Position numbers and translations under genes: made by a program | The notes under the pieces: model-generated | The model's database searches: none | Seen by the model: only the letters and a program-made list of their open reading frames with translations | Told to the model about the DNA's origin: nothing | Part shown: positions 8,205-22,544 of the stretch, in pieces | Position numbering within the stretch: position 1 is the stretch's first letter | Layout of the letters: each line of letters opens with the position of its first letter | DNA from: Acidimicrobiales bacterium | GTDB taxonomy: Bacteria > Actinomycetota > Acidimicrobiia > Acidimicrobiales > SZUA-35 | Assembly (NCBI GenBank): GCA_047638695.1 | Contig: JBLINY010000003.1 | Span: 21,035 to 85,034 of the forward strand | Length of the DNA: 64,000 bases | Direction: 5' to 3'

Positions 8205-9911
8205 TCAGGCCAGTCCGGCAAAGGGGTCATCGGCGACACCTGCGGCCGCTGATGGGCTGGCCGCTTCGGCCGAACGAGTCGCCCATGAGGGAAAGGGAAA
8301 CTCGACCAGGAGCGGGACCGGCAGCAGCGGTTGGGCCACATACATCGAACCGGGTTTCAGGATGGTCGAGCGCGCCCGCTGCACCGGCGGCAGAAAGCCG
8401 TATTCGTCGCGACGAGACTCGGCCGGGTCGAGGCGGCCGACAATTCGAATGGCCGAGTTGGAAACGATCCGTCGCTCGACCTCGCTGGCCGTCTGCTGAG
8501 CACCAATGAGAATGATGCCCAACGACCGCCCTCGCTCGGCGACATCCAGCAGGATCTCCTTGATCGGACTGGATGAATCTCGGGGCGCATACTTATTCAG
8601 TTCATCGAGCACGACCAGCTGAAGCGGCTTGGCAATGCCGCTGGCTTCCTTCGCATCGAAGGCTTGCCGCAACACGACCCCGACCACGAAGCGCTTGGCT
8701 CGGTCGTGGAGCGAGTGAATGTCGATGACGGTGACCTGATGGCCATCGAGATCGACGGCGTGCTGATCGGCGTTGCCGATGTCAGCCCTGATCAGTTGCT
8801 CGACGTGTCGTCGGGCCGAGGCCAACCGCCGAACAAAGGCGTTGATGGTGCCGCCGCCAACGGCGCGGCCCGTCCACCGCTGGTCGGCGGGTTCATCGGC
8901 GTCTTCGGGAATGAGCTTGTCCTCGATGGCGTCGAGCAAATCGCTGAAGGTCCGTATGGTGCGCCCTTCGAAACTCACCGCGCCATCGCCGGCGGCCGGG
9001 AGCTGGGCCAGCTGTGCGGTGACCGACTGGACGACGATGGTGTATTGCTGCCGCTCGTCTTCGGAGTCGGCGAACAAGAACGGCAGCAGCTGTTGATGGC
9101 AGAACTGCTGGATGGTCCAAAAGAAGGGACTTACGCCGAGTGACCGCGAGCCGGTGGCCGGCGTGGCGTTGGCGTCGCCTTTCCGAGGCGGTGCCAGGAT
9201 GCCGACGTCTCGGAAGGGCGCCGGTTCCAGGCCCAGTGGCTTGTACCGGTCGGCGGCCTGCTGGTCGAGCTGGCTGTTGGCGTGATCGAGAAAGAGTAGA
9301 TCTTCGCCTTTTACGTTGAAGATAAGGGCCTTGGTGTTTGCCGCCTCGGCGCCCAGTACGCCGGAGTTGAACATGGAATACAGCAGAAACGTGGCGTAGC
9401 TGGTCTTGGTGGCCACACCGGAGATTCCAGAGATGTTGATGTGGGCACCCTTGGTGCCATCGATGAAGTCGAGGTCGAGAAACACCGGCTCATCGTTGCG
9501 AGAGAGTCCGGCCGGTAGTCGTCGTTCGACCCCGTCGAACGACAGCGCAACGTCACGTTCAAGATCTGTTGCCAACCGGACGGCCGCACCCGGCAGCGGC
9601 GGAAGCAGGATCTCGGGCTCGAATCGGGTGGGCTGCACCAGAGCCGCCTCACTGACCTCGGCCGGCAGGATGCCGTCGGCGATCAAGAACACATCGCTCT
9701 GGAAGCGCGCCCCCTCATGCCGGGCCCGGACTTGGCTGACCAGGCCGAACATTTGGACGAGCTGTCCATCGGGCAGGATCCGGTCGACGGCGACGACATC
9801 GTCTAGTTGCAACGTGTGCGCTGGGTCGACGGCCACCCAGAACTCCAGCGGTGTCGCATCTTCGATCCCGATGACCCGCCCAACCGTTGGCTTCGCCCCA
9901 GTCAGCTCCAT
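8205..9911 (-). CDS. herA: HerA-like (DUF87/FtsK-HerA superfamily) ATPase/helicase
   Basis: 568 aa with an N-terminal HAS-barrel-like segment (GRVIGIED..FWVAV..VVAV), P-loop GISGVATKTS and Walker B LVVLDELNKY. First gene of the operon. Confidence 0.75.
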   Translation of the reverse strand: MELTGAKPTVGRVIGIEDATPLEFWVAVDPAHTLQLDDVVAVDRILPDGQLVQMFGLVSQVRARHEGARFQSDVFLIADGILPAEVSEAALVQPTRFEPEILLPPLPGAAVRLATDLERDVALSFDGVERRLPAGLSRNDEPVFLDLDFIDGTKGAHINISGISGVATKTSYATFLLYSMFNSGVLGAEAANTKALIFNVKGEDLLFLDHANSQLDQQAADRYKPLGLEPAPFRDVGILAPPRKGDANATPATGSRSLGVSPFFWTIQQFCHQQLLPFLFADSEDERQQYTIVVQSVTAQLAQLPAAGDGAVSFEGRTIRTFSDLLDAIEDKLIPEDADEPADQRWTGRAVGGGTINAFVRRLASARRHVEQLIRADIGNADQHAVDLDGHQVTVIDIHSLHDRAKRFVVGVVLRQAFDAKEASGIAKPLQLVVLDELNKYAPRDSSSPIKEILLDVAERGRSLGIILIGAQQTASEVERRIVSNSAIRIVGRLDPAESRRDEYGFLPPVQRARSTILKPGSMYVAQPLLPVPLLVEFPFPSWATRSAEAASPSAAAGVADDPFAGLA

Positions 9912-10135: not shown

Positions 10136-10164
10136 GCTTTCGCCTTCATGCTACGGGGGTGTTT
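10104..10164 (-). terminator. intrinsic terminator (minus strand)
   Basis: Minus strand reads AAACACCCCCG...(inner GGCGAAAGCCCGAAAGCGCC)...CGGGGGUGUUU followed by ACUCUUUUGC. The outer stem is 11 bp. A U-rich tract is present only in the minus orientation. Confidence 0.7.
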
Positions 10165-10654
10165 GAGTCGGTTCGAGCATCCACCCACGTCGATCTCCAC
10201 GGCAGTACCGTTTCATTCAACGAGTTTCCACTTCCCGTCAGGCCAAGGCTTGGCGGGAAGTTTCCGTTTTAGCGTCACCGCGGGTTTCCCCGGGTTTGCT
10301 GAGGGCCTCGTTCATCACAGCGGTGCTGTTCCAGCTGGTTCCGGGTTGCCCCTTCATCAGCTGATGCCGTCCCGCTGTCCTCACTCGGACCTCTTACCAG
10401 TTCGAGCGGTGGCCAAAGCCTCCGGTCTCCCCGTGGCTCGAACGCCGAAGCGCCGTTGCCGGATGGGATGTCTTTCCTGGGCAGGCCTTGTTTGTGCCGT
10501 TTTCATCTCTTCCGACCAGGTCTGTCACTCGGCCCGAAGGCTTGGTGGGCTTTCCCGGTCTTTCGAGCTGTTTCGTGCGCTCACTCCGCTTGCTTGTTGG
10601 TCATCCAAGTGCCCACGAACCTATGGGTCAAGCGGTTCGTCCGAATCCCCAGGG

Positions 10655-10727
10655 TTGTCCGCAGCATTTCTTAGTTGTCCTCAGAATTGGCGATGTTGCC
10701 CCCATGTTTGCCCCCAAGTTGTCCACA
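10655..10727 (+). promoter_or_regulatory. phased array of DnaA-box-like 9-mers
   Basis: All on the same strand: TTGTCCGCA (10655), TTGTCCTCA (10675), TTGCCCCCA (10696), TTGCCCCCA (10708), TTGTCCACA (10719). The last is a perfect match to the actinobacterial DnaA box consensus TTGTCCACA. Spacings are 20, 21, 12 and 11 bp. Confidence 0.4.
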
Positions 10728-10963
10728 AGCGCCGGCACGCGAGCAGGCGTGTCAGACCATCGGCCGCCGGGTCGCCAAATTTTGGGCCGAGCCTTGTACT
10801 ACTCCCTGGAAAGGTTCCGACAATTGGGGGCAGCGGGTTGCAGAAGCAGCTCGCCAAACCACCAAAACCGGTTCGGAGCCGGACTCGTACCCATGCTCGG
10901 TGGACGGGCTAGTCGAACTCGACCGGTCCGTCCTCCGCGTATGTCTGCTGACTACTCCGACCG

Positions 10964-12874
10964 TCAGGCGTGGCTGGCCCAGGTGGCGTACATCTCGGCA
11001 TAGTGACCACCGGCGGCCACCAGCTCATCGTGCGATCCCAGTTCGATCAATCGACCATCGTCGATGACCGCAATCCGGTCGGCTCGCATGGCTGTGGCCA
11101 GGCGATGAGCAATCACGATGGCGGTGCGGCCTTCGAGAACAACATCGAGCGCCCGCTCGATCACCGTCTCGCTTCGTAGGTCAAGATTGCTGGTTGCCTC
11201 ATCCAGCACCAACACTCGTGGTTGGGCCAGAAAGGCTCGGGCCAACGCCAGGAGTTGTCGCTCTCCTGACGATAAGGACGAGCCCCGTTCGTGGACGACG
11301 GAATCAACGCCGTTCGGAAGCCGATCGATGAGTTCGCCAAGGCCAACGGTACGGCAGGCGGCCTCGATCTCTTCGCTGCTTGCATCAGGACGACCAAAGG
11401 CGATGTTGTCGCCAATCGTTCCGTTGAAGAGGAAGGGCTCTTGCGGAACTACGCCGAGCTGCTGACGAAGCGAGAACAGGGTGAGGTTTCTGAGGTCATG
11501 GCCGTCGATACGAACCTCGCCCTGGTCGGGGTCGTAGAACCTGGTCACCAGCTTGGCGACCGTCGACTTGCCGGCACCGGTTGGGCCAACCACAGCGATC
11601 GTCTCGCCGGGCGCAATCTGCAGATCGAGGTTGTGCAGCACTGGCTGTGATGGGTCGTAGCCAAAGGTCACGCCGCGGAGTTCGATATGCCCGGCGACCG
11701 GAGGCAGCGTGGAGGCATCGGCGCGCTCGACGACGCTCGGCTCGGTTAGGAGCAGCCCGCGGAGCTTGCCGACGGCCGCTTGGCCCTGTTGGTAAGAGTT
11801 GTACAGCTGCACGAGCTGTTGGATGGGGGCAAAGAAGGCGGTGAGATATAACAGAAACGCGAAAAGCTCACCGACGGTCAGACTCCCGTTCAGGACCATC
11901 CGGCCGCCAATCAACAGCAGGACGGCTTGGCCCAGAACACCGATGGCCTCGTTGGCTGGCCCGTAGAAGGCTCCGACGCTCGAGGCGTACACGTTCGCAT
12001 CTCGGTGCTCGCCGACGACGTTGGCGTGGTTGATCACGTTGTGGTGCCGGCGGTTGCTGGAGGTGATCACCCGCATACCGGCGAGACTCTCGGAGAGGTC
12101 GGCCAGGACGTCGGCAATACGGTCGCGCACCCGGCCGTAGCCCCGTTCCGAAGCCCCTCGGAACCACACGGTCAGCGCCATCATTCCCGGCAATACGACA
12201 ACCAGCGTGATGAGCGCCAACGTAGGGCTGAGGATCAACATCACGATGGTGATGACGACAAGCGTGAGGCCCTGGACCGCGAGGTTCACCAGACCGTCCT
12301 GGAAGAGGGCAGCGAGAGCGTCGATATCGCTCGTCATCCGGGTCATCAGCCGGCCGGTCTTTTCACCGGTGAAGAAGTCGAGCGACTGTCGCTGGAAGTG
12401 GGAAAATACCCGCACCCGCAGCTCGTACATGAGCTTCTCACCGAGCCGGCCGGTGTACGCGATGCGCGCATAGGACGCTGCAGTATTCACCAGCACCGAC
12501 GCCAGGTATGCCAGGCCGACCAGCCACAACACGTTCGTATTGCGAGGAACGATGGCGCGGTCGATACCAATTTGGGTGAGCAACGGACCGGCTTGAAGGG
12601 CCAGGGTTTCGATGACCACCAACACCATCGCACCGACAAGTCCTAATCGATGGGGTTCGAGGAACACCCGCAGAGTGAAAGGTCGGCGTTCGTAATCTGA
12701 TTGCGAGAACGCAATGTCGGGGGTTGGATGGTCCGGCTCTTCGGACAGGATCTTCTCGGCCCGCTCGGCCAGCTCAGTTGGAACGCCGGCGAAAGGCAGA
12801 CCGGCTGCTGCGCTGGTAGCAGCGGCTGAAGGCCCACCTCCGAACGGCGACCCTGACGGTGCACCCCAGCTCAT
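10964..12874 (-). CDS. ABC exporter, fused permease/ATPase (MdlB/MsbA type), subunit 2
   Basis: 636 aa with a six-TM domain plus NBD: GPTGAGKST, LSSGERQ, LVLDEATS. Confidence 0.9.
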   Translation of the reverse strand: MSWGAPSGSPFGGGPSAAATSAAAGLPFAGVPTELAERAEKILSEEPDHPTPDIAFSQSDYERRPFTLRVFLEPHRLGLVGAMVLVVIETLALQAGPLLTQIGIDRAIVPRNTNVLWLVGLAYLASVLVNTAASYARIAYTGRLGEKLMYELRVRVFSHFQRQSLDFFTGEKTGRLMTRMTSDIDALAALFQDGLVNLAVQGLTLVVITIVMLILSPTLALITLVVVLPGMMALTVWFRGASERGYGRVRDRIADVLADLSESLAGMRVITSSNRRHHNVINHANVVGEHRDANVYASSVGAFYGPANEAIGVLGQAVLLLIGGRMVLNGSLTVGELFAFLLYLTAFFAPIQQLVQLYNSYQQGQAAVGKLRGLLLTEPSVVERADASTLPPVAGHIELRGVTFGYDPSQPVLHNLDLQIAPGETIAVVGPTGAGKSTVAKLVTRFYDPDQGEVRIDGHDLRNLTLFSLRQQLGVVPQEPFLFNGTIGDNIAFGRPDASSEEIEAACRTVGLGELIDRLPNGVDSVVHERGSSLSSGERQLLALARAFLAQPRVLVLDEATSNLDLRSETVIERALDVVLEGRTAIVIAHRLATAMRADRIAVIDDGRLIELGSHDELVAAGGHYAEMYATWASHA

Positions 12875-14880
12875 GACTGTTCGCTTTCGTCTCTGTCAGC
12901 TTCGTCTCTGTCAGCTTCGTCTCTGTCAGCTTCGTCCATGTGGGCCAGTACTTCGGCATAACGAGGTTCGGTGTCCATGAGCTCGCGGTGAGTTCCTGAT
13001 GCGGCAACACGTCCCGCCTCCAACAGCACGACCCGATCGGCCAACGCAATGGTCGACAAGCGGTGAGCGATGATCAGCGTTGTCCGATTCGCCAGCTCAG
13101 CGTTCAGCGCCGTGTGGATGTTCTCTTCGACTCGCACGTCGATGGCGCTGGTGGCGTCATCGAGCACCAGGATCTTGGGGTCGGCCAGCAACGTTCGGGC
13201 GATTGCCACTCGCTGCCTCTGGCCACCGGACAGGGTGTATCCCCGCTCGCCCACCACCGTGTCGTACCCCTCGGGTAGGGCATCAATGAAGTCGTGAGCC
13301 TGGGCTGCGGTGGCTGCCGCGATCACATCGTCTCTCGAGGCATCAGGCCGGGCGTAGGCGATGTTGTCGGCCAGACTGACCGAGAACAGAAAAGGCTCAT
13401 CGGTGACCATGCCGAGGTTGGCCCGCAAACTGGCCTGCGAGAGATCACGAACGTCGTTACCGTCAACCCGCACCGCACCGTTGTTGACGTCATAGAAGCG
13501 CCCGAGAAGCCGAGCAATCGTCGTCTTGCCACTGCCGGTTCGGCCGACGATGGCAAGGGTCTCGCCCGGCTCAACGACGAGCGAAAAACCGGACAACACG
13601 TCTGGGGCCCGCGTGCCGCCGGGTGCCGACTCAGCAGCGTTTTCGCCAGCAGCGGTCGCAGAAGCAGCGTCATCGGCGGCGCCGTCCTCGGCTGGCAACG
13701 GTGTGCCATAGCCGAACGTCACGTCATCGAACTCGATCCGTCCGACTGGGTCGGTCAGATCTGCGGCATCGGGGCGGTCAACAATCTCGGGCGCCTCATC
13801 GAGCACTTCAAAGATGCGATCGGCCGATGCTTTGGCCCGCTGACCCATCATCAAGAACAGACCCAGCATCCGAAATGGGGCTTGCAGCATGGTGACGTAT
13901 GCGGTGAAGGCGAACAACGTACCCTCGGTTACTTCACCCTCGATCACGAGCCAGCCGCCGTAGACCAGAACCAATAGCGTTCCGAAACGGGGCAGGTTCT
14001 CGATAAAGGGGTTGTAGCGGGCCCGCATCTCGACCGTCCGGACGGTGGCCCAGCGCAGGGATGTGGCCGACTTGGCCAGCTGGTTGATCTGCGCTCGCTC
14101 GGCCGCAAAAGATCGCACCACTCGCACGCCGTTGATGTTCTCGTCGACGGTGGTCGCCACGTCAGCCAGGCGAGACTGCACGATCCACGACAACGGGAAC
14201 AGTTCGTTCCGCAGCTTGACACCTAGCCAATAGACGCCGGGCAGCGGAACGATGGCTACCAACGTCAGCGGCACATGGATCGAAAGCATGAAGGCGAACG
14301 CGGCCACGAACATCACGCCCGTCATGGCGATGAGAGGCGCGAAGGTGAGGTAGATCTGGACCGAGCGGATATCGCTGTTGGCTCGAGAGATGACCTGACC
14401 AGACTGCGTGCGGTCGTAGTAGCTGAATGACAGTCGGGTGAGGTGTTCGTACAACCGATTACGGAGATCGCTGTCGATCTGAAACGCCGTTCGGTACAGC
14501 CCGTAGCGATAGATGAACGTGATGCCGGCCCTGGCCAGTCCGATGATCAGAACAAGGACGACAAATCGGCCGAGCGGAGCGCTGCGGTCGGTGAGTGCTT
14601 GGTCAATGCCTGCACGGATCACCGCAGGAAGAGCAACCTGCAGAAGGTTGGCAATGAGCGCCAGGAACAGCGTGCCGAAGAACATCACCCGGTGAGCCAG
14701 GACGATCGGAAGTACTCGTCGAATCCATCCCAATGAACGGTCGGGATCGACGTTGCCTCGTGGCGGGTCGTAGCGGCGCTCTACGGCAACCGGGGCGAAA
14801 CGCGGATCGGCGGTCGCGTCAAGGTGCTCTGCATCGGCTGCCACATCCACAGACCGACTGTACGGCGCTCGTGAGGGCAA
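12871..14880 (-). CDS. ABC exporter, fused permease/ATPase, subunit 1
   Basis: 669 aa with GRTGSGKTT, LSGGQRQ and LVLDDATS. ATGA overlap with the partner gene. The NBD carries an Ala/Gly/Asp-rich insert, and the C-terminus is the repeat EADRDEADRDEADRDESEQS. TTG start, so the start is uncertain. Confidence 0.88.
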   Translation of the reverse strand: MPSRAPYSRSVDVAADAEHLDATADPRFAPVAVERRYDPPRGNVDPDRSLGWIRRVLPIVLAHRVMFFGTLFLALIANLLQVALPAVIRAGIDQALTDRSAPLGRFVVLVLIIGLARAGITFIYRYGLYRTAFQIDSDLRNRLYEHLTRLSFSYYDRTQSGQVISRANSDIRSVQIYLTFAPLIAMTGVMFVAAFAFMLSIHVPLTLVAIVPLPGVYWLGVKLRNELFPLSWIVQSRLADVATTVDENINGVRVVRSFAAERAQINQLAKSATSLRWATVRTVEMRARYNPFIENLPRFGTLLVLVYGGWLVIEGEVTEGTLFAFTAYVTMLQAPFRMLGLFLMMGQRAKASADRIFEVLDEAPEIVDRPDAADLTDPVGRIEFDDVTFGYGTPLPAEDGAADDAASATAAGENAAESAPGGTRAPDVLSGFSLVVEPGETLAIVGRTGSGKTTIARLLGRFYDVNNGAVRVDGNDVRDLSQASLRANLGMVTDEPFLFSVSLADNIAYARPDASRDDVIAAATAAQAHDFIDALPEGYDTVVGERGYTLSGGQRQRVAIARTLLADPKILVLDDATSAIDVRVEENIHTALNAELANRTTLIIAHRLSTIALADRVVLLEAGRVAASGTHRELMDTEPRYAEVLAHMDEADRDEADRDEADRDESEQS
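12886..12937. repeat. 15-bp tandem repeat x3.4 at the C-terminus of an ABC gene and the gene junction
   Basis: ttcgtctctgtcagc repeated at 12886, 12901 and 12916, with a partial fourth copy. Encodes (EADRD)x3 on the minus strand. Confidence 0.95.
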
Positions 14881-15880: not shown

Positions 15881-16495
15881 ATGGATCTTGATTTCTGGGT
15901 TGACCCCATTTGACCATGGTGCTGGGTGACGGCCCGTTGGGTCGTCGACGAGGTAGCACCAGCGCGTGATCTGAACATCACGTGGCAGCCCATCAGCCTG
16001 CTGTTCAAGAACGATGTGCAGCCTGACAACGAGCGCTACGACGTGTACTTCAGCACCCACCGCATGTTGCGGGTGATGGAGGCCGTGCGAGTGGCCGAAG
16101 GTGAAGGCCCGGTCTTTGAGCTGTACTGGGAGTTCGGCCGTCGCATCCATCACGACAAAGATCGCGATTTCGACATAGCTGATGCGCTCGAAGCAGCTGG
16201 TCTCGATCGGGCCCATGCCGCGGCTGCCGACGACGAGTCGTGGGACGACATCATCCGCAAACGTCAAGCCGTCGGCATCGAGTTGGCTGGCGAAGACATT
16301 GGTACACCGATCATTGCTTTCGATGATCGCAACGGGGTCAAGCAGGGCTACTTCGGTCCGGTCATCACCCGAGTACCACCCACTGAGGACTCGCTGGCCA
16401 TGTGGGACGCGATGGTAGCCATGATGAACGTCCAGGGATTCTGGGAGCTCAAGCGCACCCGCACCGAGCGCCCCGAGTTCGGGGAACGTCCCTGA
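15881..16495 (+). CDS. DsbA-like / Rv2466c-like (mycothiol-dependent reductase family) thiol oxidoreductase with in-frame TGA (putative selenocysteine) in the active site
   Basis: The ORF track starts at GTG 15926, but the frame is open back to ATG 15881 apart from TGA at 15911-15913. Read-through gives MDLDFWVDPI-U-PWCWVTARW, so the family's CPWC redox motif appears with U at the first Cys. The C-terminus ELKRTRTERPEF is typical of the family. Confidence 0.7.
15918..15960 (+). promoter_or_regulatory. candidate bacterial SECIS hairpin
   Basis: Outer stem GGUGCU (15918-23) pairs with AGCACC (15955-60). Inner 8-bp stem GACGGCCC/GGGUCGUC (15928-46) has a GUU apical loop about 23 nt after the UGA. 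Confidence 0.5.
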
Positions 16496-17380
16496 TTGAG
16501 CTTCGAAGAACCTGAACTGATTGCCTCGACCGATGGGGTCGAGGTGGCGCTCCATCGCTTGGGGGGCAACGGCCCGCCGCTGCTGTTCATGCACGCCACC
16601 GGTTTCAACGGGCGCACCTACAGCCCATTCGTGGCGCCCCTCATCGAACACTTCACCGTATGGGCTCCCGATATCCGCGGCCACGGATGGAGTACAACGC
16701 CCGAGAACGGCAACTACGACTGGCTACGCATTGCGTCAGATGTGCTTGCCGCCATCGACCACCTCGGTATCGCCACAGGCGAGCTCGATGCGGTGGGCCA
16801 CAGCGTCGGTGCCGCCCTGCTGCTGCTGGCCGACGCCGAACGGCCGGGTTTGCTGCGACGCATGTACGGCTACGAGCCCATCGTCTGGCGTCCGGGCGAG
16901 GTGTTCGGCCCGGGCGAGAATCCGCTTGTCGCCGGCGCCTTGAAACGCCGCGAGGTCTTCACCGATCGAGGCGAGGCCATCGAACGATTCGCCGGCCGAC
17001 CACCGTTCGCCACCAGCCGAGCCGATGCGCTGCACGCCTACGTCACCCACGGCTTCGAGGATCTCGACGACGGCACCATTCGTTTGCGCTGTCGCGGCGC
17101 CGACGAATCAGCCACCTACGACGGCGAGCGAACATCAACCAGCGATCGCCTTACTGGCTGTCAGGCCCCGATCGCCATTGGCAAAGGGGCCGACAGCGGA
17201 TTCGGCAATCTCGGGCTCCCGGCCTTCGAAGCCCTGCCCAATGCCACGCTGGTGGTGCATGATGACCTCGGGCACTTTGGTCCACTCGAGGCACCAACCC
17301 GGTTAGCGGCCGACGCCCTTGCCGCCGTGCTTTCACCGAACGACGAAGCCGGAGTTACGTCGCCTCCACCGCCGGGATGA
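16496..17380 (+). CDS. alpha/beta hydrolase
   Basis: HATGFNG oxyanion region and GHSVGA nucleophile elbow. 294 aa. TTG start directly after the upstream TGA. Confidence 0.8.
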   Translation: MSFEEPELIASTDGVEVALHRLGGNGPPLLFMHATGFNGRTYSPFVAPLIEHFTVWAPDIRGHGWSTTPENGNYDWLRIASDVLAAIDHLGIATGELDAVGHSVGAALLLLADAERPGLLRRMYGYEPIVWRPGEVFGPGENPLVAGALKRREVFTDRGEAIERFAGRPPFATSRADALHAYVTHGFEDLDDGTIRLRCRGADESATYDGERTSTSDRLTGCQAPIAIGKGADSGFGNLGLPAFEALPNATLVVHDDLGHFGPLEAPTRLAADALAAVLSPNDEAGVTSPPPPG

Positions 17381-18410
17381 CCTCGTCGGTGAGCAGGGAA
17401 AGACAGCGTCGGACCTGCTCATCTGCTTGACCAGGATGCTGCATCCGCAGGATCAGATCGGTGACGCCGAGTTCGTCGCGGTATCGACGGATCTCGTCGG
17501 CGCAGAATTCGGGATCGCCGATGATGAAGCGATCTTTCCAAAAGGCTTCCGACTCATAGAACGGGTCGTCGAGATCCGTCACCAGTCGACGGCTTCCGTC
17601 TGCCATCCGTTCGATCATGGCCACCCCGGGCGGGGCGTAGACGTTCCGATACGTGTGCATGAGATGTGGCCGTACCTCGGCCCAAGCCTGCTCGGTCGTT
17701 TCAGCAACGTAGAAGTCACGAATCAGCGCGATGGGCTCGTCGTCAAGCGGGCGGCCGGCTGCCTGCAAGGACACTCGATAGTCGTCGAACTGGGCCTTGG
17801 TGTGTTCAAGATCAGTGAGCAGCGAGATCAACAGGCGATGGCCATCGTCCGCCACTCGTCGACGAGTCTTCGGGGTGGCAGCCCCAACCCATAGTGGCGG
17901 CGGTGGTTGCTGAACCAAACCTGGCTTCAGTTGGGCATCAAGAACGTTGTAGTGCTTGCCCTCAAAGCTGAACCGCTCGCCGCTGAAGGCCAGGTTCAAG
18001 ATCTCGAGCCCCTCCAGATACATGGCCCGCCGAGAAGCGAACTCGTAGCCAAACCCGTCGAACTCGTCGGCCCGGTACCCCTGACCGACGCCCAGCTCGA
18101 AGCGCCCACCGGAGATGTTGTCGACAACCGCGCAGTCTTCGGCCAGCTTCATTGGATGGCCATAAAGGGGAAGTACGACGATCCCCTGGCAGATTCGCAC
18201 CTGCTCGGTGACGGCCGCAACGGCGGCCGCCACCATCATGGGTGACGGGCAGTAACTGTCTTCGAAGAAGTGGTGCTCGGTCAGCCAGATCGAATCGATA
18301 CCGCGCCGGTCGGCCTCGGCGATCTGCCCCAAACCTTCCCTATATACCTGCGCGGTCGAGGCACCGAACTCTGTCGGTGCCTCGAAAGAATAGAGCAGGC
18401 CAAATCGCAT
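17355..18410 (-). CDS. LLM-class (luciferase-like) flavin/F420-dependent oxidoreductase
   Basis: 351 aa with MRFGLLY...WLTEHHF...GRFELGVGQG, typical of the LLM family. Confidence 0.85.
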   Translation of the reverse strand: MRFGLLYSFEAPTEFGASTAQVYREGLGQIAEADRRGIDSIWLTEHHFFEDSYCPSPMMVAAAVAAVTEQVRICQGIVVLPLYGHPMKLAEDCAVVDNISGGRFELGVGQGYRADEFDGFGYEFASRRAMYLEGLEILNLAFSGERFSFEGKHYNVLDAQLKPGLVQQPPPPLWVGAATPKTRRRVADDGHRLLISLLTDLEHTKAQFDDYRVSLQAAGRPLDDEPIALIRDFYVAETTEQAWAEVRPHLMHTYRNVYAPPGVAMIERMADGSRRLVTDLDDPFYESEAFWKDRFIIGDPEFCADEIRRYRDELGVTDLILRMQHPGQADEQVRRCLSLLTDEVIPAVEAT

Positions 18411-18419
18411 GGCCGAATA

Positions 18420-19766
18420 TCAGCTGTAGGGGTGAGGGATGCGCTCGATCTGCAGCGGGTTGTCGTAATCGACCATGCCGGTCTGCATGCCGGCAATGGG
18501 CTGCGCTTGGTAGCGAGCTACTTCGGCCCGACCAACCACCATGTGATGGACCTCGTCGGGTCCGTCGGCAAGCCGCAGCGTTCGCTGGGCATGGTAGAGA
18601 TCGGGGAGAACCGTCCATTGGCTCACTCCTGCGGCGCCGTGCATCTGGATGGAGGCGTCGATGATCTGGCAGACACGCTCGGGCACCATGGCCTTGACGG
18701 CCGACACCCACACTCGTGCTTCGCGGTTGCCGAGGACATCCATGGCCTTGGCGGCACGCAACACCATGAGGCGCATGGCCTCGATGTCAATGCGCATACG
18801 GGAGGCCAGCTCGACGTTCTTACCCAGCTGGATGAGGGGCTTGCCGAAGGCTTGCTTCGACAGACCACGCTCGCAGTAGAGCTGCAGCGCCTTATCGGCG
18901 GCGCCGATCGAGCGCATGCAATGGTGAATCCGGCCCGGTCCAAGACGAAGCTGACTGATCTCGAAGCCACGACCCTCGCCCAGGAGCATGTTCTCCTTCG
19001 GCACCCGCACATCGGTGTACTTGATGTGCATATGACCGTGAGGTGAATCGTCACTGCCGAAGACATGCATCGGACCGAGGATGTCGACGCCAGGAGCATC
19101 GATCGGCACGAGAATCTGCGACTGCTGCAGGTGAGGAGCAGCATCGGGGTTCGTGCGACACATGGTGATCATGATGAGGCAGCGAGGATCGCCCGCCCCC
19201 GAGATGTAGAACTTCTCGCCGTTGATGACGTACTCGTCGCCATCCAACTCGGCCACCGTCGCCACATTCTTGGCATCGGACGAGGCGAACTCGGGCTCGG
19301 TCATGGCGAAGGCCGAGCGAATCTTGCCTTCGAGAAGCGGCTTCAGCCACTGCTCTTTTTGCTCGGGGGTGCCGACACGCTCGAGCACCTCCATGTTGCC
19401 GGTGTCGGGAGCGGCGCAGTTGAGGCACTCCGAAGCGAGGCGATTCTTGCCCAGCTCGTTGGCGATGTAGGCGTAGTCGAGGTTGCTGAGGCCTTCGCCG
19501 GTCTCAGCGTCGGGCAGGAAGAAGTTCCATAGACCCTGTTCGCGAGCCTTTGCTTTCGCCCCCTCGAGCAACTCAAGTTGGCCTTCGCCGTAGCTCCACG
19601 GGTCGACACGACCCTCGCCGAGGCGGTGGAATTCTGCGGTGATGGGGTCGACTTCAGTCGAGATGAACTTGATGACCGACTCGAGGAGCGGACGAGCGCT
19701 GTCCGACATCGAGAGGTCGTACATCTGGCCACCGAAGTCGTCAGTGTTCAAGGGGTTGGCTGGCAT
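18420..19766 (-). CDS. acyl-CoA dehydrogenase (ACAD10/11-like FadE)
   Basis: 448 aa with FAMTEP..SDA and a YISGAGDPR-type motif, and an ACAD C-terminal helical domain. Confidence 0.85.
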   Translation of the reverse strand: MPANPLNTDDFGGQMYDLSMSDSARPLLESVIKFISTEVDPITAEFHRLGEGRVDPWSYGEGQLELLEGAKAKAREQGLWNFFLPDAETGEGLSNLDYAYIANELGKNRLASECLNCAAPDTGNMEVLERVGTPEQKEQWLKPLLEGKIRSAFAMTEPEFASSDAKNVATVAELDGDEYVINGEKFYISGAGDPRCLIMITMCRTNPDAAPHLQQSQILVPIDAPGVDILGPMHVFGSDDSPHGHMHIKYTDVRVPKENMLLGEGRGFEISQLRLGPGRIHHCMRSIGAADKALQLYCERGLSKQAFGKPLIQLGKNVELASRMRIDIEAMRLMVLRAAKAMDVLGNREARVWVSAVKAMVPERVCQIIDASIQMHGAAGVSQWTVLPDLYHAQRTLRLADGPDEVHHMVVGRAEVARYQAQPIAGMQTGMVDYDNPLQIERIPHPYS

Positions 19767-20564: not shown

Positions 20565-22544
20565 TCAGTCGACGCGCGGCCCGGTCGCCCCGGGAACGGT
20601 CGCCGATCGGCGCTGTACGACAACGAAACCGGCACCAGCGAGCACGACCATCAGCACAAGTCCTGGGATCAGCCCGTCGCCGGTGGCCGAGAACGAATCG
20701 TCGACGAGGCCGGTATCACCACTTGGGATGGCAGTGGGAGCGGTTTGAAGACCGTCGATGCGACGGATCAACGTGGTCAGATCGCCCTCGTCCCCGCGAA
20801 CCCAAGCCGTCGTCAATTCGCCCTCGGCCGAATCGATCTCCTGGGTGTACAGCTCGTTGCCATCGGCATCGACAACCGTGAGCACGTGGGCCCCAGCTGG
20901 CACATCGACCACAGCCGATGATCCGGAAGGAACCTCGGTAGCAACCTCGTCGCCGTCCAGAAGCACCGTGGCTGGCCCCATGGCCGCCACGTGTCGAACA
21001 GCGAAGCGGCTCTGGCCTGGCTCGATCGGGTCGAGATTGTTACCAAATGCCTGCAGCATCGGGGTGCCCTCAGCATCGACAAAGGCAACGAGCGTGCCGG
21101 AGCCGTCGATGTCCAGTGGACCAGCCAGGACTGGCTTGTCATCTCGGTCGTCGACCGAATCCGGCGGGTTGTCCTGTGCCACGAAGAGATCGACGGGTTG
21201 ACCGGCAGCATCGAGCGAAAGGGGGCCGGCGAGGTTGCCCGGTGAGAACCCGGGCGCAGCCAACTCACCGTTGATGTACGCGTCGACGTCGACACCGGGA
21301 ACAGCGTGCAGAATCTCGAACGAACCGGTTGCGTCAGCAGCTGAGAGCGCTGCCACGGGTGGAGGATCTGCCGGCCCGGTGATTGTTGTGGTCGCCTCCG
21401 TTGTCGTTGGAGCAGCTGTCGTCGGAACAGCTGTCGTGGTTGGAGCGATCGTGGTCGTTGGCGCCTCCGTTGTGGCGGGAGCAACCGTCGTCGTCGGGTC
21501 TTCTGTTGCGTCGTCGACGCTCTGCTGCACCTCACTCGCGGCTTCTGTGTCGGCGACGTCACCATCGTTGTCCCGGGTCAGAGCCCAAAGTCCGAGGCCG
21601 CCCACTCCAACGAGACCGGCGAGAACCCACCCAGCGCGCCGCCGACCACGTCTGCCATCGCTTTCGGGCGGGGTGGCCGCGACTGCAGCGGCCGTCGTCG
21701 GCTCTTTTCGGCTGGCGGCGAATCCGGCCGCGCCAACAGCGACCGTTGCCCCGCCGACTGCGGCAGCTGCACCGGCACCGGCAAGGCCGCCGGTGCGATT
21801 GTTCACTGCGTCGGACAGCTGGCGGGCGGCTTCCGAGCTACCGAGCGCGGCCAAACCATGACGGCGGCGACGGCGGCCGGGCAACGCGCCGAGTCGATCG
21901 GCGAACGAGCGAGCGCTGGGAGGACGATTCGACGGCTCGGCATTGGTGGCCTCGCTGATGAGCTGCTGCGCGTCGCTTGGGATCTGCCCTTGCGTGCGGC
22001 CAAGACCCTTTTCAAGAACGCGACCGAGGCTGTACACGTCAGATCGGACGTTGGGGGTGCCCCCGGCCAAGACTTCGGGAGCGACGTAGTCGCTGCGGTC
22101 TGCCTCGGCCGTACCACCGCGTCCCAGGCCCATACCGGCCACGGCGATCTCGCTGCCCACCACACGAATGTCATCGGTGCCGAGCGCGCCATGAACCAGA
22201 CCGGTGAGGTGGCCGGCGTGAGTCGCCTCCGCCGCCGCTTCGGTGGCCGACACAATCTCGTCGAAACCAGAGACCGAGCGGCCGTCGAGCGCCTCGGTGA
22301 ACGAACGGCCGGGCGCCGGAAGTTGGTAGGCCTTCACCTCGTCGAAGGTGCGAGTTACCCCAACGGTTGGTACGAGACCGTCGATGTTCTCGGTCTGGAC
22401 CAGCCGTCGTCGATGCTCCTCGGGCCATGCGGTCGAGGGAACGACCACCACATCAGCCTCGCGCCCGCCGACCAGTTCACTCGATCTCTGATAACCAAAC
22501 CAGGTTCGGGCATCGCCCGAAACATCGTCGGTTGATTCGCTCAT
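20565..22544 (-). CDS. transmembrane pseudokinase with extracellular Thr/Pro linker, DUF4397 repeats and C-terminal sorting-type signal
   Basis: The N-terminal STPK-like fold retains APE and SDVYSLG, but HRD is replaced by HGA (LVHGALGTDD) and DFG by GMG. One TM segment (AGWVLAGLVGVGGLGLWAL), then a T/P-rich linker, then two DUF4397-like modules. The C-terminus is ..SFSATGDG + hydrophobic stretch + QRRS. Confidence 0.7.
   Translation of the reverse strand: MSESTDDVSGDARTWFGYQRSSELVGGREADVVVVPSTAWPEEHRRRLVQTENIDGLVPTVGVTRTFDEVKAYQLPAPGRSFTEALDGRSVSGFDEIVSATEAAAEATHAGHLTGLVHGALGTDDIRVVGSEIAVAGMGLGRGGTAEADRSDYVAPEVLAGGTPNVRSDVYSLGRVLEKGLGRTQGQIPSDAQQLISEATNAEPSNRPPSARSFADRLGALPGRRRRRHGLAALGSSEAARQLSDAVNNRTGGLAGAGAAAAVGGATVAVGAAGFAASRKEPTTAAAVAATPPESDGRRGRRRAGWVLAGLVGVGGLGLWALTRDNDGDVADTEAASEVQQSVDDATEDPTTTVAPATTEAPTTTIAPTTTAVPTTAAPTTTEATTTITGPADPPPVAALSAADATGSFEILHAVPGVDVDAYINGELAAPGFSPGNLAGPLSLDAAGQPVDLFVAQDNPPDSVDDRDDKPVLAGPLDIDGSGTLVAFVDAEGTPMLQAFGNNLDPIEPGQSRFAVRHVAAMGPATVLLDGDEVATEVPSGSSAVVDVPAGAHVLTVVDADGNELYTQEIDSAEGELTTAWVRGDEGDLTTLIRRIDGLQTAPTAIPSGDTGLVDDSFSATGDGLIPGLVLMVVLAGAGFVVVQRRSATVPGATGPRVD

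Follow-up and report, generated by a model that had tools for sequence, protein, structure and literature searches.

DsbA-like selenoproteins with a UxxC motif, U being selenocysteine (Sec), have been on record since 2005, when nine sequences of this kind, assigned to COG2761, were described in the selenoproteome of the Sargasso Sea (PMC1088965). DsbA 1, 2 and 3 selenoproteins are also listed for the Global Ocean Sampling (GOS) data (PMC2398784), a count of 2016 put DsbA-like selenoproteins in 41 bacterial genomes, and a 'DsbA-like protein form 1', described by PF01323 and UxxC with NIP15863.1 as its example, appears in reviews of 2022 and 2026 (PMC13188914). A separate literature deals with Rv2466c (Mrx2), the mycothiol-dependent reductase and nitroreductase of Mycobacterium tuberculosis, in which Cys19 carries out the nucleophilic attack and Cys22 acts as the resolving Cys (PMC11841060). 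Here, we report on a 64-kb stretch of DNA from an Acidimicrobiales bacterium (contig JBLINY010000003.1), hereafter called the window, whose own positions are used as coordinates throughout. The segment 15881-16495 of the window is, very probably, a selenoprotein gene that joins these two lines of work, encoding an Rv2466c-family reductase in which the nucleophile is Sec (U-P-W-C) and the UGA codon is recoded by means of a selenocysteine insertion sequence (SECIS).

The original prediction had pointed to metagenome reports of DsbA-like selenoproteins, which the literature bears out, and had regarded a Sec form of this actinobacterial enzyme as notable. Since the window gene combines PF01323 with UxxC, the features by which the DsbA-like selenoproteins are defined, its kind is already known, and its family may even have been counted already among the selenoproteins of Ilumatobacter. 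On the other side, no publication linking Rv2466c and selenocysteine was found in the literature searched; what appears to be unrecorded is thus the assignment to the Rv2466c/Mrx2 subfamily and the correct annotation, all close database entries found being truncated.

Reading frame, family and conservation of the TGA codon

Reading from position 15881, the codons ATG GAT CTT GAT TTC TGG GTT GAC CCC ATT TGA CCA TGG TGC TGG GTG give a conceptual product of MDLDFWVDPI-*-PWCWVTARW..., and the frame remains open up to the terminal TGA. In the mechanical list of open reading frames (ORFs), the long ORF begins at GTG 15926, downstream of the redox motif, and measures 189 amino acids. The translation and the ORF list thereby bear out two elements of the original prediction, namely a reading that runs from the ATG through the in-frame TGA into PWCWVTARW, and a conventional start that falls after the active site.

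For comparison with Pfam and with the Protein Data Bank (PDB), Cys was put in place of the TGA, generating a product of 204 amino acids. This product matched the Pfam family PF22234 (Rv2466c-like) over the entire model (1-180 of 180) with an E-value of 5.5e-40 and 137.9 bits, against a cut-off of 27, and also matched PF01323 (DSBA) with 3.7e-10 and 40.3 bits, against a cut-off of 25.6; no NCBIfam model matched it. Residues 4-201 were aligned end to end with structures of Rv2466c or its orthologs, i.e., 4zil, 4nxi and 5xur (E of about 1e-39) as well as 4wkw, the overall range being 1e-39 to 1e-36. In this alignment the TGA stands exactly opposite Cys19, D12-F-W-F-D-P-L-C19-P-W-C22 of Rv2466c corresponding to D4-F-W-V-D-P-I-[TGA]11-P-W-C14 of the window gene, which, together with the roles assigned to the two cysteines in PMC11841060, corroborates the proposal that the TGA occupies the place of the attacking Cys. 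The CPWC/CPFC motif that the family carries at the start of helix 1 is hence present as U-P-W-C, with the second Cys invariant. The gene is a full-length member of the Rv2466c (Mrx2, DsbA-mycoredoxin) family.

At the DNA level, the gene was compared in 19 loci from one-per-species genomes (metagenome-assembled genomes of Acidimicrobiales or other Acidimicrobiia, and several closed chromosomes) and in 14 metagenome loci. The codon at the Sec position is TGA in 16 of the 19 genomes and TGC or TGT in the other three. Those 16, six further metagenome contigs, the window itself and one more locus (L001) make up 24 distinct TGA-form sequences, all of which share the motif F-W-[VI]-D-P-x-TGA-P-W-C-W-V-T-A-R-W-V-V-D, although their pairwise amino acid identity descends to 52% (median 67%). 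Neither TAA, nor TAG, nor a frameshift was found at the Sec codon among these 24 sequences and the Cys relatives, the latter being loci L016, L018, L020, L024, L028, L030, L033 and L037-L042, with TGC or TGT in the Sec column. The decay or frameshift in near relatives that the original prediction had asked to be looked for was, accordingly, not seen. The TGA form occurs in the closed chromosomes OY730477.1, OY763490.2, OZ252146.1, OZ220709.1 and OZ244866.1, and the TGA-form genes occupy differing gene neighbourhoods, with synteny to the window restricted to L002-L004. The ten codons preceding the TGA are conserved in amino acid while varying synonymously (GAT/GAC, CCG/CCC/CCT, GTT/GTC/GTA/ATC), and in all 24 sequences there is an in-frame start farther 5', from which the frame stays open as far as the TGA. 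In L008-L014, which belong to the Candidatus Aldehydirespirator group, an AAGGAG Shine-Dalgarno sequence is located 6-8 nt 5' of the upstream ATG. The TGA-form gene of OY730477.1 (L006, 10001-10702) has a C-terminal extension of 29 residues, which brings it to 233 amino acids as against 204; its database match P0073 has 218.

Protein databases present the same family in two guises. Among the 120 best homolog clusters (90% identity), 78 carried the annotation of a truncated protein, in most cases exactly 189 amino acids long, with (M/V)TARWVV as N-terminus, and these included entries from closed chromosomes. The remaining 42 were full-length proteins with CPWC or CPFC, reading ...CPWCWVTARW in the CPWC forms, and some of the full-length Cys homologs were as near as 73% identity, with an identical flanking peptide. 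No U-containing entry was present in these 120 clusters. The TGC/TGT relatives, the 42 full-length clusters and Cys19 of Rv2466c all substantiate the Sec/Cys pair that was originally proposed.

The hairpin downstream of the UGA codon

Past the UGA lies a hairpin of 19 nt, consisting of an 8-bp stem and a GUU loop (Table 1). The stem begins after a spacing of 14 nt, and the loop opens with the 23rd nt past the UGA; the claim of a SECIS-like hairpin with its apical loop about 23 nt after the UGA was thus correct, its lower tier being weaker. Bacterial SECIS elements have been defined by a stem-loop directly past the UGA and a small apical loop that contains a G (PMC1088965), and this is the arrangement that the 8-bp stem and its GUU loop display. 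The lower stem pairs are kept mostly by G-U and A-U wobble; conserved residues dictate several of them, so that as evidence they are weak.

The codons that encode the hairpin (+5 to +12, counted from the Sec codon) are nearly frozen synonymously in the 24 TGA forms: Val +5 is GTG, Arg is CGT and Val +11 is GTC, each in 24 of 24. The Arg codon is always CGT despite its six-fold degeneracy, while the adjacent Pro codons vary freely in the same sequences. For the seven degenerate codons of the hairpin, the normalised synonymous-codon entropy of the TGA forms was 0.124, as compared to 0.547 for the 87 other conserved degenerate codons of the gene (Mann-Whitney p=1.8e-4). In contrast, the same test on the Cys forms returned 0.532 and 0.508, respectively (p=0.51); this set comprised 12 genes, four of which were chosen for encoding the identical peptide CPWCWVTARWVVDEV. 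The stem cells of the alignment are 100% paired across 22 aligned sequences, and the only substitutions found in the stem preserve the pair, namely, in L015 and L023, a compensatory change of G-C to U-A and, in L014 and L022, a change of C-G to the wobble U-G. Of the 12,288 synonymous ways to encode V-T-A-R-W-V-V-D, the observed one ranks 17-24, i.e., in the top 0.2% for stability, with -13.9 kcal/mol as compared to a mean of -5.3 (sd 2.5) over the synonymous encodings.

The loop adds a second kind of evidence. In the E. coli SECIS, it is the loop that SelB recognises. The middle loop base of the window hairpin is neutral for stability, CGT, CGC, CGA and CGG at the Arg codon being tied; nonetheless, CGT, which places U in this position, was found in 24 of 24 TGA forms and in only 3 of 11 Cys forms (Fisher p=7e-6, uncorrected for phylogeny). 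Since this base is neutral for stability and yet invariably U, it points to base-specific recognition of the G-U loop. Overall, the comparative data strongly argue for selection on the hairpin at the RNA level, limited to the TGA forms.

Table 1. Features of the probable selenoprotein gene, in window coordinates
Feature	Position	Strand	Basis or remark
Full coding sequence of the probable selenoprotein, an Rv2466c-like/DsbA-like thiol-disulfide reductase	15881-16495	+	204 codons including Sec; translation, Pfam, PDB alignment
N-terminal ten codons, MDLDFWVDPI, skipped by standard gene calling	15881-15910	+	Strand into the active site, by alignment with Rv2466c residues 12-18
In-frame TGA, very probably read as Sec; equivalent to nucleophile Cys19 of Rv2466c	15911-15913	+	TGA in 24 of 24 clade sequences
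TGC, resolving Cys of U-P-W-C (equivalent to Cys22)	15920-15922	+	Cys invariant, TGC in 16 and TGT in 8; alignment; role according to PMC11841060
GTG, Val +5, internal Val codon mistaken for a start by gene callers	15926-15928	+	Also present in Cys forms
Upper stem-loop of the candidate SECIS	15928-15946	+	5' arm 15928-15935, GACGGCCC; loop 15936-15938, GUU; 3' arm 15939-15946, GGGUCGUC
Possible lower stem of the SECIS, around the upper stem-loop	15917-15961 (about 15917-15923 with 15952-15961)	+	RNAalifold consensus; weak
Terminal TGA stop	16493-16495	+	Directly followed by TTG 16496, at which the next gene, for an alpha/beta hydrolase, starts

Selenocysteine weighed against other explanations

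Several results weigh against Sec at this site. At 63% GC, the stability of the single hairpin sequence is only modestly unusual (z=-1.75 relative to shuffles), and because this is weak evidence, single-sequence stability was set aside for the comparative tests. Covariation was seen at two pairs, in a total of four sequences, and may go back to two events. A part of the pairing potential stems from the peptide T-A-R-W-V-V itself, the DNA of which is semi-palindromic, and some Cys forms fold equally stably (L018, -16.7 kcal/mol; L041, -15.2 kcal/mol), others forming a partial hairpin. Because several Cys forms keep a partial or an equally stable hairpin, the hairpin alone is undiagnostic; the TGA-linked synonymous freeze, unlike the hairpin alone, is diagnostic. 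Rfam had no match on the window at the gathering threshold, and around the site it offered no SECIS family at E<=10, only a chance match to P10; since Rfam models the SECIS elements of bacteria poorly, such a miss was to be expected. In-frame TGA codons were also scanned for in three ways, with a filter on GC at third codon positions (GC3), by Sec/Cys homology and with a period-3 filter, and none of these scans produced another convincing Sec candidate in the window or its flanks; in the homology scan, off-frame matches between homologous GC-rich stretches overwhelmed the output.

The decoding machinery belongs on the same side of the balance. With E. coli SelA, SelB and SelD as tblastn queries (E<=1e-3), neither the window nor the flanks analysed, which total about 0.5 Mb, gave a match, and tRNA-Sec was likewise absent from both; by ARAGORN, there was none in the window and the 19 loci, but only a conserved tRNA-Arg(CCG). 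That the host organism possesses Sec machinery is therefore suggested by the literature on related genera. In Tables S1 and S2 of Peng et al. 2016 (PMC5029168), Ilumatobacter coccineus and I. nonamiensis, both Acidimicrobiales, are listed as SelD+, SelA+ and SelB+, with 15 and 10 known selenoproteins, respectively, as compared to one or two in the neighbouring rows of Actinobacteria. In the Actinomarinales, another order of Acidimicrobiia, selA, selB, selC and selD are found in all 84 complete Actinomarina genomes (preprint 10.64898/2026.04.03.716425).

It is natural to ask if the UGA could be passed in a Sec-independent manner, i.e., through inefficient decoding by a near-cognate tRNA for Trp or Cys, with the hairpin and the UGA-C context as generic stimulators, so that the protein would carry Trp or Cys. 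UGA-C is a weak termination context, and the base after the UGA is indeed always C; the stable hairpin close downstream, and the lack of selA, selB, selD and tRNA-Sec in the DNA just described, also agree with such read-through. However, the recoded residue is the one that makes the nucleophilic attack in catalysis, a role open to Cys and Sec only, and relatives do use a Cys codon, TGC or TGT, which a single mutation of the TGA would supply. The invariant G-U of the loop adds no stability, which favors base-specific recognition over a mere roadblock, and the related genera tabulated in PMC5029168 have complete Sec machinery and many selenoproteins. We consider Sec-independent read-through unlikely. 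Still more improbable is that the public annotation is correct, and that a protein of 189 amino acids with no CxxC starts at GTG 15926, the upstream ATG...TGA being an unrelated short ORF or a leader peptide. This is the model adopted by gene callers for the 78 truncated clusters, and the mechanical ORF list agrees with it; nevertheless, the ten codons ahead of the TGA share one frame with P-W-C-W, and both stretches are conserved in amino acid and homologous, residue for residue, to the active-site strand and the CPWC motif in full-length Cys forms and in Rv2466c. The Cys forms have this GTG as a Val codon inside the gene, the Shine-Dalgarno sequence, where visible, precedes the upstream ATG and not the GTG, and a product that began at Val +5 would be devoid of both redox residues.

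As TGA is a single substitution away from TGC or TGT, one sequence alone could not exclude a nonsense mutation in a pseudogene, or a miscalled Cys codon in sequencing or assembly. A sequencing error is ruled out because the TGA recurs in independent assemblies: it is present in 24 distinct sequences obtained by independent assemblies and technologies, closed long-read chromosomes included. The rest of the gene is intact, with amino acids conserved while synonymous codons vary, and the synonymous constraint on the hairpin is confined to the TGA forms. The conserved TGA and this TGA-specific constraint effectively refute the pseudogene and the error alike. As for a genome-wide reassignment of TGA to sense in the lineage, the in-frame TGA is the only thing that speaks for it. 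More long ORFs in the flanks end in TGA (77 of 130) than in any other stop codon, and 17 of the 24 TGA-form genes, the window gene included, terminate with TGA; because TGA serves as a stop in most flank ORFs and in these 17 genes, the recoding is site-specific with no change of the code, and reassignment is refuted.

For the preferred reading, i.e., a selenoprotein gene with a SECIS, the sequence suggests the following course of events. Translation would initiate at ATG 15881 and yield a cytoplasmic thiol/selenol-disulfide reductase of 204 residues, the UGA being recoded as Sec by the SECIS in codons +5 to +12, a GC-rich stem of 8 bp with a GUU apical loop, which the lower stem probably lengthens. 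Following the example of E. coli, this element would be bound by SelB in complex with Sec-tRNA(Sec); the dependence on SelB and tRNA-Sec is inferred, as is the incorporation of selenium. The selenolate, in place of the Cys19 thiolate, would then attack disulfides or mixed disulfides of presumed substrates, and the neighbouring Cys14 would resolve the intermediate as a selenenylsulfide. Re-reduction of the enzyme would most likely be accomplished by mycothiol, a plausible reductant. Mycothiol biosynthesis has been predicted in I. coccineus (PMC3910706), and a mycothiol-dependent formaldehyde dehydrogenase is known in marine Acidimicrobiales (PMC4337565).

Neighbourhood, evolution and relation to known systems

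The selenoprotein gene is closely flanked on both sides. A gene for an NAD-dependent epimerase (PF01370, 14913-15857) ends 23 nt 5' of ATG 15881, and one for a hydrolase (PF12697, 16496-17380) starts with TTG directly after the stop TGA of the selenoprotein gene; the three look like a compact unit, an arrangement kept only in L002-L004. Farther upstream, 10964-14880 on the minus strand holds two tandem fused ABC exporter genes (PF00664 and PF00005 in each) that overlap by 4 nt, and these, too, are upstream only in L002-L004, while the ORFs at 8205-9911 and 10148-10912 have no Pfam match. Downstream, on the minus strand at 17355-19766 and 20565-22544, are genes for a luciferase-like monooxygenase (PF00296), an acyl-CoA dehydrogenase and a DUF4397 protein. 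Gene neighbourhood was rejected as a functional clue, since synteny is found among the closest relatives only. In L006-L011, L013 and L014, which are chromosomes of the Candidatus Aldehydirespirator type, the tRNA-Arg(CCG) occupies a conserved position some 1.2-1.6 kb 5' of the TGA-form gene (e.g., 8706-8778 in L008). Immediately 5' of the CPWC orthologs in L037 (1861-2565) and L038 (256-1452, abutting) is an FrhB_FdhB gene, similar to the beta subunit of F420-reducing hydrogenase or formate dehydrogenase, and the Cys forms may thus have an F420-linked context. L037, an Acidimicrobiia-like contig, also bears from 6559 onwards a gene call of 8,450 residues that runs off the locus and would represent a giant protein.

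A rough neighbour-joining tree of 156 family members, which is short and noisy, showed Sec and Cys forms interleaved, with a Fitch minimum of eight state changes and Cys at the root. This suggests repeated switching between Cys and Sec, possibly helped by a proto-hairpin that the peptide itself encodes. Cys forms already carry such a proto-hairpin because the helix-1 codons for T-A-R-W-V-V are intrinsically semi-palindromic, and its presence in Cys forms would ease the switch from Cys to Sec. We put forward tentatively, and with rather more reserve than confidence, that the window gene represents the first natural Sec form of Mrx2/Rv2466c, in which selenol chemistry is joined to the mycothiol system, that its SECIS is an exaptation of the T-A-R-W-V-V proto-hairpin, and that switching is easy and possibly recurrent.

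The finding will not surprise a selenoprotein specialist; its value lies elsewhere. An entire Acidimicrobiales clade is recorded as a 189-residue protein with no active site, and a gene model with a Sec column would fix these records, which would improve selenoproteome counts for a lineage that is abundant in water and soil. Rv2466c is a well-studied prodrug activator in tuberculosis, and a natural ortholog with Sec at position 19 would allow Sec and Cys to be compared readily in a redox enzyme linked to mycothiol. Finally, the alignment presents a bacterial SECIS under measurable selection at synonymous sites, with Cys-form controls of the same peptide, and it suggests a route by which the conservation of a peptide can make a site pre-adapted to Sec recoding.

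Among described systems, the DsbA-like selenoproteins resemble the window gene in the DSBA fold (PF01323), in Sec for the first Cys of CxxC, in a SECIS that directly follows the UGA and has a G in its small apical loop, in the widespread occurrence of Cys homologs and in their presence in environmental metagenomes (PMC1088965, PMC2398784, PMC13188914). They differ in that the papers define the family by PF01323 or COG2761 plus the motif, with AACY01178397 and NIP15863.1 as reference sequences and the present comparison being one of descriptions, whereas the present clade is PF22234, cytoplasmic, U-P-W-C-W and from Acidimicrobiales, no member having been found annotated with Sec. Rv2466c shares with the window protein the Pfam family, an alignment over the full length, the motif F-W-x-D-P-x-[C/U]-P-W-C-W and the retained Cys22; it has Cys19 and comes from Mycobacteriales, as opposed to the probable Sec in Acidimicrobiia, and mycothiol dependence and nitroreductase activity of the window protein would follow by analogy with it. 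NCgl2478 of Corynebacterium glutamicum belongs to the same broad family, is mycothiol-dependent and is placed in a 'DsbA-Mrx1 cluster' (PMC8280269). Its CPFC motif is that of the Cys-form sister group (L016, L018, L024, L028 and L030) and of many protein matches, whereas the TGA forms are all U-P-W-C. The archetypal bacterial SECIS is that of E. coli fdhF, which is bound by SelB and has its loop G at +23 (the U of UGA being +1). It is likewise an intra-coding stem-loop directly 3' of the UGA, with an apical G-U at a fixed distance; in the window, the loop G is at +26 by the same count, the loop has 3 nt, there is no evident bulged U and no sequence similarity, and binding of SelB is putative.

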